Shown piece by piece: positions 1-3,502 of a stretch of 64,000 nucleotides of DNA. The DNA is taken from the NCBI RefSeq assembly GCF_003019035.1, contig NZ_CP027447.1, one strand, 5' to 3'. Under the pieces are notes generated by a model. The model was given only the letters and a program-made list of their open reading frames with translations, was not told the DNA's origin and searched no databases. The stretch's first letter is position 1; the number at the start of each line of letters is the position of its first letter. Origin of the DNA: Escherichia coli. Its GTDB lineage: Bacteria; Pseudomonadota; Gammaproteobacteria; Enterobacterales; Enterobacteriaceae. The translations under genes were made by a program, and so were the position numbers.

Positions 1-1100
1 TCCAGTTCAACCGCAGGGCACGGCGGGAATTTCTGCTCGTTGACCATGTTGAGCATCTGGCGGGAGGCTTTCAGCCCCTGAATGTTGGCAGCGGCAGTCG
101 GGATACCCCAGGCTTCGTGCGGACTTTTGGTGATGACTTTGGTGGCACCAGACATCCCCGCGACGGCTGCGCCCCAGGAGATAATAGCGAACGCTTTCGA
201 TTCGTCTTCCGGAAAGCCGCCCATCCACTGGTGAAATACGGTACTTAATTCATAGTCTGTATAGCCATAGCTCTGAAAGTATTCGTGTGCAAGTTCACGC
301 AGAGACTGGATCGCCGCGACATCCTGCGTCAGGCTGCCGACCTGTCCATAACCAACGGTGATAGATTTCACACCCTGTTCCAGCGCCAGTAATCCTTCGA
401 TTATCGCGATAGAGTGCGAGATAAACGGCGGGATCAGGGTACCCGTTAGTGGGCCAAACGGTTCGCGGTTGATGCGGATCCCGTGTTCTTCATACATCCC
501 CATTAAACGGTCGCAGTACTGCCAGTCGCGGATCGATTTTTCCAGCGTTACGCGCTTGGCATACGGAATATTGTAGGAAATGCCGCCGCCTTCATAACTG
601 GTAAAGCCGCTGGCCATCGAGATTTCAGCCAGCAGACGCGCATCTGGCGTGCCGTGGCGGATCTGTAGCGGTTTTTGCAGAGTTTCGGTGAGGCGACGGC
701 AAGCTGCGACGCCGTGGTTAACGACCGGTAAACCGTTCAGTTTAGAGGTTCCGGCTTCGATGGATTTTTTAATCCCTACAGCCGCTTCTTCGTACCGATT
801 CAGACGGGTATATGCATCGATGGTGCTCGGCAGCAGATCGCATTCTTCTTGTAGTGTTTTCAGTAGTTCGATGTGTTCGTCCATCAGCGCCACGCCTGCG
901 CGCGGTTGGCTAAGAGTTTTACCTTCCTTGTCTGCTTTCAGCAGGGCAAGAGAGAAGCGTTTATGCTCAGGAATGGTTTGTTGGTATTTAACGCCATCTT
1001 CAAAGTTTTCAACATCCTTGCCGGTTTCCCAGGTTTTCAGTACCTGTTGCCGCTCGGTCATGAATTCGTCATGGGTTAATTTCTTATTTCGAAGTTCCAT
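1..1100 (-). CDS. glmE: Glutamate mutase (methylaspartate mutase) E subunit, 5' portion; C-terminal part lies beyond the window start
   Basis: Reverse-complement of 1021-1100 translated by hand gives MELRNKKLTHDEFMTERQQVLKTWETG, matching the clostridial GlmE/MutE N-terminus; ATG is at 1098-1100 on the minus strand; not in the ORF track because no stop falls inside the window. Reading frame through to position 1 assumed, not fully translated. Confidence 0.8.
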   Translation of the reverse strand, partial: MELRNKKLTHDEFMTERQQVLKTWETGKDVENFEDGVKYQQTIPEHKRFSLALLKADKEGKTLSQPRAGVALMDEHIELLKTLQEECDLLPSTIDAYTRLNRYEEAAVGIKKSIEAGTSKLNGLPVVNHGVAACRRLTETLQKPLQIRHGTPDARLLAEISMASGFTSYEGGGISYNIPYAKRVTLEKSIRDWQYCDRLMGMYEEHGIRINREPFGPLTGTLIPPFISHSIAIIEGLLALEQGVKSITVGYGQVGSLTQDVAAIQSLRELAHEYFQSYGYTDYELSTVFHQWMGGFPEDESKAFAIISWGAAVAGMSGATKVITKSPHEAWGIPTAAANIQGLKASRQMLNMVNEQKFPPCPAVEL

Positions 1101-1118
1101 TGATTGCAGCCTTAATTG

Positions 1119-2507
1119 TTATAGGGTTAAGCATTGAATACTGGTGCGCGCGGCGGCCAGCGGATCGACTCTGGCGACGTTTGCCAGCAGTGGTAATAGC
1201 CCCCGGGAATCGCGGTAATATTCAAATTCGGTCGGTAAGAGAATGCGTTTACCGTCGTCGTTTAACTCGCGGTATTTCAACCAGTGATGCATATCGAACT
1301 GACTGGCACGCGAGAGCCATCCGCCGGATCCGACGACTTTACGCACGGTTGTCAGGTCACGTCCCATCTGTAAATCGACATTGCCGACGCAGGTGCAGAC
1401 CTCTTTTTTGGTGCCCGCATGTCTTTCGGTGGCATAACCCACACACAGTCCGGCTAGGACTGTATCGAAATATTTTTCTTCTGCATTCGCGGGTAAGTAG
1501 TCGGGATGAGCGACTAGATGACGGAGGTAATGATAAAAAGCGTCCAGCTGTGCGGGTTGCTGAGCAAAATTCACATTGACTAACTCTTTCGCACTTTCAC
1601 CAACCACCATTGCCGAGACGCGCATTCCCAGATCGCCTTCCACCGTCCGTTTCACGAAGGGTTCCGGTACGCCGTGTAAAACGGTGTCGGGCGAGAGCGT
1701 GTTGGCACAGGCGGAATAGACATCGGTGGTTGCGCCACCCATGTCGATCAGCATGAACTCTTTCCAGCTGTGATCGACATTACTGATTGCCTTAACCAGT
1801 TCAAAGACTGTCCACGGTGTCGGCATTGGTTCTTCGCCTGTTTTATCAACAACGACATCCAGCCCTTTCCCTTTAACGATGCGTTTAAGGAATATGTCGC
1901 AGATAGCCTGGCGTGCAGCTAAAGGGTTCGGATGGTCAAGATCGGGCAGAACGTTGTCGACGATGGTCAGGTCTTTATGCCCTAGGATCTCCTGCACCTC
2001 GTCCTGAATATCCCGGTTTCCGGCATAAATAATGGCGCAGTCGAGTTTGGATTCTGCCAGCACACGGGCGTTATTCAGGCCGTAGCTTTCTTCTCCGCCG
2101 TCGGTGCCGCCGGTGAACAAGAGAATATCGGGCTGCGTTTCTTCCAGTGCCTGGATATCACGGCGGTTCAGCTTGTAGGAGTAATATTGCGCAATTTTAG
2201 CCCCCGCAGAGTGAGCGGTTACTTTCGCGGTTTCCAGGGTGATAGAAGGCACCAACCCCATTGCGGCAACCGCCAGCCCACCTTTGGCAGAGGAGGAATA
2301 CTTCAATGCAACCTCACCGTTGTTAAACAGGGGGAGGGCATTATCTACGTTTAACACCAGGTTCAGGCTGGAGAAAAACCCCTTCGCCAGATCATGGGTG
2401 GTGGTTGGGGTCAGTACGTGGTTAACCAACGTTAACGCGTCCCCCTCCCGGGCGAAGAGGGCTGCTTTGGTCCACGTCGATCCAATATCGACAGAGACGA
2501 TTTGCAT
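1119..2507 (-). CDS. glmL: Glutamate mutase accessory protein GlmL/MutL (actin-like ATPase fold, putative reactivating chaperone)
   Basis: 462 aa ORF with N-terminal DIGSTWTKAALF (DxGSTxxK-type ATPase motif); sits between the S and E subunit genes as in clostridial glmS-glmL-glmE operons; size matches MutL. Confidence 0.75.
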   Translation of the reverse strand: MQIVSVDIGSTWTKAALFAREGDALTLVNHVLTPTTTHDLAKGFFSSLNLVLNVDNALPLFNNGEVALKYSSSAKGGLAVAAMGLVPSITLETAKVTAHSAGAKIAQYYSYKLNRRDIQALEETQPDILLFTGGTDGGEESYGLNNARVLAESKLDCAIIYAGNRDIQDEVQEILGHKDLTIVDNVLPDLDHPNPLAARQAICDIFLKRIVKGKGLDVVVDKTGEEPMPTPWTVFELVKAISNVDHSWKEFMLIDMGGATTDVYSACANTLSPDTVLHGVPEPFVKRTVEGDLGMRVSAMVVGESAKELVNVNFAQQPAQLDAFYHYLRHLVAHPDYLPANAEEKYFDTVLAGLCVGYATERHAGTKKEVCTCVGNVDLQMGRDLTTVRKVVGSGGWLSRASQFDMHHWLKYRELNDDGKRILLPTEFEYYRDSRGLLPLLANVARVDPLAAARTSIQCLTL

Positions 2508-2956
2508 CAGATTGCCTCTTCAAGAATACGAGTATCAACGTCATGACGTTGGTTGATATCGTGTGCCATCAGCTGACAAACATCTTCTAAGTCATGACTT
2601 GGGGCAAAGACGCGATCAAATCCCATCTCTTTGAATTTGGTTTCCACGTCAGCGAAGTCATGTTTTCCGACCACCAGGTTACCGCCCACATAGAGCAGGA
2701 TGTCCCCCAGTCCACGCTCGATGCAGCGTTCGCGCATGCCCAGACAGTCGATATCGCCATGCCCATAGATAGAGGAGACGACAATCGCGTCAGCGCCAGT
2801 TTCAATGGCCGCATCAATATATTCGTCCTGGCTGACCATTACGCCCAGATTAATGACTCTGAAGCCATGGTTGCTAAAAACGCGGTCCAGAACTTTATTG
2901 CCTACTGCATGGCAGTCCGCGCCAATAACGCCAATCACAAGTGTTGCTTTCTTCAT
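2507..2956 (-). CDS. glmS: Glutamate mutase S (sigma) subunit, B12-binding domain (not GlcN-6-P synthase)
   Basis: [24 protein letters not shown]... is the classic cobalamin-binding DxHxxG motif; start trimmed from track 3019 to the ATG at 2954-2956 (minus) which has an AAAGGA Shine-Dalgarno 8 nt upstream; 149 aa fits MutS/GlmS size. Confidence 0.85.
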
Positions 2957-3502
2957 GGGTAATCCTTTGTAAGACAGAGAGTAAAATAAGTTACACACGT
3001 CGTATTTATGGCCGTTCATAACGGCACAGGTTTAATATCACAGGAGTGTCTTTATCTGACCGTAATGTTGCAATTGATCTATTTTCAAAATGTCTTTCGG
3101 GAAATGATTGTTTAAAGTATGTTGTTAAATTCTCATGTTAATTCAGTGTGTTATGTCAACTAATGTCATGAATGTTAAATTTTTAAAATTAACTTGATTT
3201 GGTGTATTGAGGTATTTGTGATCTACTTCTAATTTGCATTTTAGTGATATGGGTTTAGCCATGAGTAAATGCATTTCATAAAATTTAAGTCGAATTTCAC
3301 TGCAATTCATCTCTGCTTAATGTAAAAATAATGTTGAAAATAACAAATGGTTAATGATTCATGCGAATTATGACCTTAGTTAGCTCTTTTGATTTTTCGT
3401 AAAAAAGAGAGGTACATGAAGGTGCTACCAGTATGAGTAACGTTAATCAAAGGTTTTATTACCTCTGGCAATAACGCAGGCCATTTTCGCGACTGGGTGG
3501 AT

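Follow-up and report, generated by a model that had tools for sequence, protein, structure and literature searches.

The fermentation route from histidine through glutamate and methylaspartate to pyruvate and acetate is classically known from Clostridium tetanomorphum. A cluster of methylaspartate-pathway genes has also been described in E. coli, where it was found in 26.5% of the species and in 90.6% of O157:H7 strains (Kronen and Berg, 2015, PLoS One 10:e0145098; PMC4682846). Here we analyse the left end of a 64,000-nucleotide stretch of E. coli DNA (the window), of which the left 3 kb carry the genes for B12-dependent glutamate mutase, glmS, glmL and glmE. The cluster is thus an already known one, the methylaspartate-pathway genes of about one fifth of E. 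coli including O157:H7, and the genes mark this strain as one of that fifth with the genetic potential for B12-dependent degradation of glutamate through methylaspartate. Positions 1-2956 (minus strand) very probably represent the section nearest the promoter of the methylaspartate-pathway operon known from enterobacteria.

Glutamate mutase genes at the left end of the window

All three products score above NCBIfam equivalog cut-offs, with every match running end to end (E-values of 3e-76 for GlmS, 4e-266 for the GlmL family and 1e-260 for GlmE). The glutamate mutase sigma subunit GlmS (2507-2956, minus strand; 149 aa), a cobalamin-binding Rossmann domain, reaches 254 bits against NF002612 (cut-off 110) and 246.6 bits against TIGR01501 (cut-off 135.8), with residues 1-147 of 149 covered. 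Over 124 aa it shares 62% identity with GlmS of Clostridium cochlearium (PDB 1I9C/1CCW/1BE1), and its DxHxxG motif (D14-C-H16-A-V-G19) matches the columns of the clostridial protein exactly. The accessory protein and putative reactivating chaperone GlmL (mutL; 1119-2507, minus strand; 462 aa) scores 510.7 bits against NF040745, ‘methylaspartate mutase accessory protein GlmL’ (cut-off 475), and 882.9 bits against TIGR01319; its N-terminus carries the actin-like ATPase motif VDIGSTWTK, and a sequence search of the PDB returned no relative. The gene for the epsilon subunit of glutamate (methylaspartate) mutase, the TIM-barrel catalytic subunit GlmE, is truncated by the left edge of the window, so that positions 1-1100 (minus strand) hold codons 1-366 of 481; the C-terminal quarter was taken from the 100% identical public genome SCU-301. 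The full-length SCU-301 gene product scores 865.1 bits against TIGR01503 over residues 3-481 (cut-off 390), is 58.8% identical to the crystallised C. cochlearium GlmE (PDB 6H9E/1CCW) and matches only glutamate mutase in the PDB.

The active site of C. cochlearium GlmE we take to comprise Arg66, Arg100 and Arg149 (the ‘arginine claw’) together with Glu171, Tyr177 and Tyr181. Aligned with PDB 6H9E chain B, the E. coli protein keeps all of these residues (R66, R100, R149, E171, Y177 and Y181). The family models and the conserved residues bear out the sequence-only reading, which had assigned the left 3 kb to GlmS with its DxHxxG motif, GlmL/MutL and GlmE and had pointed to the clostridial proteins as the standard of comparison.

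That reading had placed the end of the operon at position 3019; the operon is present, but this end overshoots the real glmS start by 63 nt. The glmS reading frame can be extended to an upstream ATG at 3019, but the true start is the ATG at 2956, since an AAGGA ribosome-binding site (2963-2967, minus strand) lies 6 nt upstream of it, the alignment with clostridial GlmS places Met1 there, and the RefSeq annotation of the identical SCU-301 genome has the same start. The glmS stop codon and the glmL ATG overlap (TGATG), and between glmL and the glmE start at 1100 lie 18 nt that include an AAGG site; given this overlap and short gap, the three genes are translationally coupled. Their GC content of about 52% (range 50-55%) is E. 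coli-like. Recent transfer from Clostridia was ruled out on this composition and on the occurrence of 95-100% identical copies across E. coli.

The operon beyond the window and its predicted route

All genes downstream of glmE were read from E. coli SCU-301, where glmE is followed by mal, AtuA and DUF4387 genes, an SDF/GltP-like transporter gene, the gene of the class I fumarase FumD, and the adenosyltransferase gene cobO. From glmS through DUF4387 the genes overlap or are separated by at most 18 nt, and at its far end the operon meets a LysR-type gene tail-to-tail. The expectation that methylaspartate ammonia-lyase (MAL) would lie downstream of glmE proved correct: the glmE stop and the mal start share 1 nt, and a mesaconase gene follows further on. 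MAL scores 543.9 bits against TIGR01502 (cut-off 286) and 898 bits to the Citrobacter enzyme (PDB 1KKO). FumD shares 99% identity with the mesaconase characterised from O157:H7, a class I fumarate hydratase that prefers mesaconate and has demonstrated mesaconase activity (PMC4682846). The AtuA and DUF4387 proteins match chains of PDB 9ERQ/9EVF (E-values of 1e-292 and 5e-57; about 92% identical) that are named Citramalate lyase subunit A/B (cmlA/cmlB), and a 2026 preprint describes a two-subunit Cml enzyme of Raoultella that splits citramalate directly into pyruvate and acetate; a literature search returned no functional paper on DUF1446/DUF4387. From the PDB molecule names and the preprint description, the pair would be the citramalate lyase CmlAB. 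The GltP-like transporter scores under both the DctA and the GltP cut-offs, which leaves its substrate uncertain.

With mal, CmlAB, FumD, the transporter and CobO in the continuation of the operon, the whole route from glutamate to pyruvate, acetate and NH3 appears to be encoded. GlmS would bind adenosylcobalamin in the ‘base-off/His-on’ form, with His16 of the DxHxxG motif as the lower axial ligand, and L-glutamate would be held by three arginines in the TIM-barrel active site of GlmE, where homolysis of the Co-C bond would start the radical rearrangement to (2S,3S)-3-methylaspartate; GlmL, an accessory protein of ATPase fold, is thought to reactivate the mutase. MAL would then release NH3 from methylaspartate to give mesaconate, FumD would hydrate mesaconate to (S)-citramalate, and CmlAB would cleave citramalate to pyruvate and acetate. 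The GltP-like symporter may import substrate, and CobO would make the adenosyl cofactor from imported corrinoid. To our knowledge E. coli lacks de novo cobalamin synthesis, and the activity of the pathway would therefore depend on external corrinoids.

A hut (histidine to glutamate) cluster adjoins the glm cluster in the lineage of the window. There, an RtcB gene and six clustered hut genes separate sucD from the LysR gene, and this arrangement of hut beside the methylaspartate-pathway cluster occurs in about 2.7% of E. coli genomes (the window’s lineage and IAI39-like strains). It is tentatively possible that the two clusters constitute one contiguous module that takes histidine via glutamate and methylaspartate to pyruvate and acetate, in whose control the two orphan ORFs described below might take part. 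If so, E. coli lineages with both hut and glm would be anaerobic gut degraders of histidine and glutamate. The side-by-side lineage is, in any case, a handy natural strain for testing the full histidine/glutamate fermentation in E. coli.

Insertion site, distribution and alternative readings

The operon occupies the locus upstream of cydA to which the sequence-only reading had assigned it, although it does not abut that gene: cydA starts at 5757, and the AT-rich glmS-cydA interval of 2.8 kb contains two accessory ORFs. In K-12 mngR-mngA-mngB lie at the same site, between sucD and cydA, as had been stated. The right-hand junction of the accessory segment falls approximately at 5350-5390, rightwards of which the DNA aligns with that upstream of K-12 cydA (pairwise alignment with the K-12 mngB-cydA intergenic DNA, in which similarity begins at about column 500-540). 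The sucD-cydA interval as a whole behaves as a variable hotspot.

The two ORFs are low-GC orphans, restricted to Escherichia and co-inherited with the glm cluster. The nearer one (3503-3925, minus strand; 140 aa) has no Pfam, NCBIfam or PADLOC match and no significant PHROG match; its named homologues come from E. coli, with one Shigella dysenteriae fragment in addition, most homologues carrying no source name. It occurs in 1138 genomes, against 1135 for glm, and its dN/dS is 0.09-0.31. The further one (4006-4950, minus strand; 314 aa) matches no family in Pfam, NCBIfam, PADLOC or PHROGs and its homologues fall into just 5 clusters in a set of 5.8 billion proteins; exhaustive searching of 1.84 billion representatives with HMMER recovered nothing but fragments of this protein itself. 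It evolves fast (dN/dS 0.40-0.55) at a constant length of 314 aa, and its AlphaFold2 model, built from a 4-sequence alignment, is unusable (mean pLDDT 44.8).

Of 5426 complete E. coli genomes, 1135 (21%) carry the glm genes. The earlier suggestion of an anaerobic glutamate-catabolic capacity unusual for E. coli thus stands as regards the capacity, for which the genes encode a route, and overstates its rarity. A literature search on methylaspartate mutase and phylogroup returned nothing relevant. The trait has been proposed to help pathogens and commensals exploit the millimolar glutamate of the gut. We infer that the pathway is expressed in this strain, with the conditions probably being those of an anaerobic, B12-replete gut; the glutamate-degrading capacity itself is best read as genetic potential only.

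Upstream of glmS lie 546 bp of AT-rich DNA (2957-3502, minus strand; about 32% GC), in which the promoter and regulatory sites presumably lie. An Rfam scan of window positions 1-6000 (E ≤ 1) found no cobalamin or other riboswitch and no other RNA family. In a scan for sigma-70 promoters and terminators over 2400-5800, counts did not exceed those of shuffled sequences, with no minus-strand sigma-70-like site upstream of glmS. The FNR box TTGATNNNNATCAA is absent from 2957-3502 at up to 2 mismatches; the sole perfect FNR box in the window is that of the cydA promoter, at 5406-5419.

Three other readings of the cluster have to be weighed. The idea, raised by the sequence-only reading as what would count against it, that the genes belong to another B12 mutase family (methylmalonyl-CoA mutase or one of the lysine 5,6- and ornithine 4,5-aminomutases) can be discounted almost entirely. 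The B12-binding domain of GlmS does match other B12 mutase families weakly, as all such domains do, but the C-terminal model of methylmalonyl-CoA mutase reaches only 52.8 bits (cut-off 57.45), the OraE (ornithine aminomutase) model 48.1 bits (cut-off 800), the lysine aminomutase beta model 36.6 bits (cut-off 280) and the model of the ornithine-pathway GlmL paralogue (Or-4) 253.9 bits (cut-off 600), whereas the models of the three glutamate mutase proteins give 254, 511 and 865 bits, over cut-off and end to end, and GlmE finds glutamate mutase alone among known structures. With every such model below its cut-off, other B12 mutase families were ruled out. It is also highly improbable that the enzymes serve a different route, be it the assimilation of external mesaconate, citramalate or methylaspartate or an anaplerosis like the methylaspartate cycle of haloarchaea. 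The reactions of glutamate mutase and MAL can run in both directions, and haloarchaea use both enzymes to assimilate acetate (PMC4682846), and the uncertain substrate of the transporter would accommodate such a role; the cluster, however, lacks genes for mesaconate CoA-transferase, mesaconyl-CoA hydratase and beta-methylmalyl-CoA lyase, in whose place stand a mesaconase acting on the free acid and a citramalate lyase, and the adjoining hut cluster points to glutamate as the input. Over 35 kb of annotated neighbouring genes, neither mesaconate CoA-transferase nor mesaconyl-CoA hydratase occurs, and the methylaspartate cycle was rejected because these CoA-ester enzymes are absent.

We consider it unlikely, too, that the cluster is a cryptic, silent relic with no role in present-day E. 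coli physiology, for example horizontally acquired DNA silenced by H-NS. In O157:H7 ATCC 700728, under every condition tried and with or without cobalamins, neither gene expression nor MAL activity nor glutamate-dependent anaerobic growth was obtained (PMC4682846); moreover, both the DNA upstream of glmS and the orphan ORFs beside it have a very high AT content (29-39% GC), and the promoter scan gave no standout promoter-like site. Against this, 1124 of the 1135 carrier genomes have the glm genes at full length, and many enterobacteria show MAL activity according to Kato and Asano (1997) as cited in PMC4682846. The dN/dS values among E. coli lineages (0.01-0.02 for glmE, 0.03-0.08 for glmS and 0.01-0.2 for the glm genes overall) are comparable to those of core cydA and show strong purifying selection, by which the genes are maintained. 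We thus retain the reading of a methylaspartate-pathway operon for glutamate degradation. The gene identities are not in doubt, and corrinoid availability may gate the operon.

Comparison with known clusters

The closest relative is the glutamate-fermentation cluster described by Kronen and Berg (2015) in Enterobacteriaceae, among them E. coli O157:H7; it lies at the same site between sucD and cydA and has the same gene order: LysR, cobO, fumD, gltP-like, DUF4387, AtuA, mal, glmE, glmL, glmS and the two orphan ORFs. Nucleotide identity with the window is 98.0% over glmSLE, and FumD is 99% identical. O157:H7 lacks the RtcB gene and the six-gene hut cluster of the window’s lineage; functionally, the genes of the window are no different.

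GlmS-GlmL-GlmE of C. cochlearium and C. tetanomorphum (MutS-MutL-MutE; PDB 1CCW, 1I9C, 6H9E and 1BE1) likewise form a two-subunit adenosylcobalamin enzyme. The clostridial and E. coli clusters share the gene order S-L-E followed by mal, and at 62% (S) and 59% (E) identity the DxHxxG motif and the substrate-binding residues are common to both. They differ in the later steps: clostridial clusters encode MesAB, a mesaconase of two subunits, and a citramalate lyase complex that resembles citrate lyase (PMC4682846), whereas the E. coli cluster has FumD, a class I fumarase of one chain, and an unrelated lyase, CmlAB (AtuA/DUF4387). The methylaspartate cycle of haloarchaea runs on via mesaconyl-CoA, and its role there is anaplerotic rather than catabolic. 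Methylmalonyl-CoA mutase and the lysine 5,6- and ornithine 4,5-aminomutases share with GlmS the Rossmann-type B12-binding domain and its DxHxxG motif, but their catalytic subunits are unrelated to GlmE at the family level.

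Glutamate mutase genes at the left edge of the window

The left edge of the window carries three co-directional minus-strand genes, as seen from the ORF listing and the left-edge translation: glmS (2507-2956), glmL (1119-2507) and the 5' part of glmE (1-1100), which is truncated at position 1 with 366 of its 481 codons in the window. A sequence-only reading had ended glmS at 3019, the longest possible extension of the ORF; we place the start at ATG 2956, which is preceded at a distance of 6 nt by an AAGGA site, lines up with Met1 of clostridial GlmS and is also the RefSeq start. 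The glmS stop and the glmL start overlap (TGATG), and the 18-nt glmL-glmE spacer includes an AAGG site, an arrangement that indicates translational coupling of the three genes within one operon.

Products were assigned to families using NCBIfam equivalog models with curated cut-offs. GlmS scores 254 bits with NF002612 (cut-off 110) and 246.6 bits with TIGR01501 (135.8), GlmL 510.7 bits with NF040745 (475) and 882.9 bits with TIGR01319 (204), and GlmE 865.1 bits with TIGR01503 (390), so all three exceed their cut-offs and are, as had been proposed, the S subunit, GlmL and the E subunit of glutamate mutase. The first reading had itself raised membership of another B12 mutase family as one way it might be wrong, but every rival model stays under its cut-off: the scores are 52.8 bits for the C-terminal domain of methylmalonyl-CoA mutase (cut-off 57.45), 48.1 for OraE (800), 36.6 for lysine aminomutase beta (280) and 253.9 for the GlmL-like ornithine protein (600). 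Over 124 residues GlmS shares 62% identity with the GlmS/MutS structures of C. cochlearium and C. tetanomorphum, and alignment to these solved structures shows that Asp14-x-His16-x-x-Gly19 is kept. GlmE is 58.8% identical to the C. cochlearium structure over 480 aligned residues and keeps Arg66, Arg100, Arg149, Glu171, Tyr177 and Tyr181, which we take to be the substrate-binding and catalytic set. Sequence search detected no solved-structure relative of GlmL; its N-terminal VDIGSTWTK looks like a phosphate-1 motif of actin-fold ATPases.

The operon beyond the left edge and its expression

E. coli SCU-301 (NZ_CP051751.1) matches the first 5750 bases of the window at 100% identity, and in that genome glmE is followed leftward by methylaspartate ammonia-lyase (MAL), AtuA-family, DUF4387, GltP/DctA-like symporter, class I fumarate hydratase and cobO genes, with a LysR-family gene convergent with the operon end. 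The glmE stop and the MAL start share 1 nt, and the MAL product scores 543.9 bits with TIGR01502 (cut-off 286) and 898 bits against Citrobacter MAL 1KKO; the lyase expected downstream of glmE is in place in this genome. The mesaconase sought to the left is there too, the fumarate hydratase being 99% identical to FumD of O157:H7, a mesaconase that prefers mesaconate 2-3-fold (Kronen & Berg, PMC4682846). The same authors left the fate of citramalate open (PMC4682846). The AtuA protein matches 'Citramalate lyase, subunit A (cmlA)' of PDB 9ERQ/9EVF (E 1e-292, about 92% identity) and the DUF4387 protein 'subunit B (cmlB)' of the same entries (E 5e-57), which supplies the step listed as unknown in the 2015 paper. 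Both genes, AtuA-family (DUF1446) and DUF4387, lie just left of the window at 11726-13410 of the SCU-301 locus L001, and their RefSeq names are still generic. With MAL, FumD and CmlA/CmlB assigned, the cluster appears, from its gene content, to encode the whole route from glutamate to pyruvate, acetate and NH3, together with uptake and cofactor adenosylation.

Upstream of glmS no FNR-like box was found, no B12 riboswitch was matched in Rfam, and promoter-like sites were not more numerous than in shuffled sequence. The sole perfect FNR consensus in the 64-kb window, TTGATATAAATCAA at 5406-5419, is located some 340 bp ahead of the cydA start, within the segment shared with K-12. In O157:H7 attempts to induce the genes did not succeed, and neither growth on glutamate nor MAL activity was found, with or without cobalamins (Kronen & Berg, PMC4682846); MAL activity in many enterobacteria is attributed to Kato & Asano, as cited there.

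Distribution, selection and orphan ORFs at the sucD-cydA site

In K-12 MG1655, as had been stated, mngR-mngA-mngB occupy the sucD-cydA interval instead, and similarity to the region upstream of K-12 cydA resumes at about window 5350-5390; in O157:H7 EC4115 this site is occupied by the glm cluster that the window has. The cluster is less unusual than first supposed: of 5426 complete E. coli genomes, 1135 have glmSLE at 95-100% identity and 3884 have mngRAB. A single one of the 1136 matches to glmSLE falls on a plasmid record, the others on chromosomes. That the cluster is a dead relic is argued against by dN/dS over three E. coli lineages (glmE 0.01-0.02, glmS 0.03-0.08, glmL 0.15-0.20), values which show that selection maintains the genes. 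GC content is E. coli-like in the glm genes (50-55%) and 29-40% across window 3000-5700.

This AT-rich stretch includes, between glmS and cydA, two minus-strand orphan ORFs of 32-39% GC, orf140 (3503-3925, 140 aa) and orf314 (4006-4950, 314 aa), for which family searches gave no match. They are present in 1138 of the 5426 genomes, almost exactly the glm-carrying set; most of their homologues have no source name, and those with one are E. coli plus one Shigella dysenteriae fragment. The length of orf314 is conserved while it evolves fast (dN/dS 0.40-0.55), and its AlphaFold model is too poor for use. A 65% identical homologue, accompanied by an unrelated 258-aa ORF, lies between cydA and sucD without glm genes on a Logan contig (SRR11658232, 9880-12562) whose genome of origin is Escherichia-like (its cydA is at a dS of about 0.28 from E. 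coli), an arrangement in no complete E. coli genome; orf314 may therefore be older than the glm cluster or unconnected with it.

The E2348/69-derived O127:H6 genome NZ_LT903847.1 has, at 6901-10183 of its locus, sucD, mngR, a 5' fragment of mngA, ISEc13, glmS, orf140, orf314 and cydA, with a deletion from glmL onwards. This looks like an IS-associated deletion fusing mng with glm content. Given this gene order, mng and glm are not alleles that strictly exclude each other, and the sucD-cydA interval acts as a hotspot of rearrangement. Elsewhere in the window, the tRNA Lys/Val array after cpoB (14847-15650) has seven genes against six in O157:H7 EC4115. The ybhL-ybhN interval (about 54238-56374; record 3323500-3325636) holds two Bax-inhibitor-1 family genes, a DUF3969 gene and a small hypothetical gene, where K-12 presumably has ybhM only.

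The adjoining hut cluster and comparison with known systems

The initial observation and interpretation were correct, except for details of strand and start and for a rarity that was overstated. Published work already covers the glm system, and RefSeq annotates it routinely, leaving only two mildly new angles: the two co-inherited orphan ORFs and a hut-glm adjacency in a minority lineage. Left of the window, between sucD and the LysR gene, SCU-301 has an RtcB gene together with a hut cluster (L001 1-6703; L002, a second locus of that genome, 2172-12068) comprising a HAL-like lyase (under the hutH cut-off), hutG, hutI, hutD, a cytosine-permease-like transporter and hutU. No more than 144 of the 5426 genomes, IAI39 among them, have the hut stretch; O157:H7 lacks it, whereas the window's lineage has it. 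Since the Hut product is glutamate, the adjoining genes can be read as a path from histidine through glutamate to pyruvate and acetate, which suggests a putative contiguous module leading from histidine via glutamate to pyruvate. For gut anaerobes, a 2026 preprint regards 'Hut + methylaspartate pathway' as an oxidative route for histidine, with E. coli serving as a non-metaboliser control.
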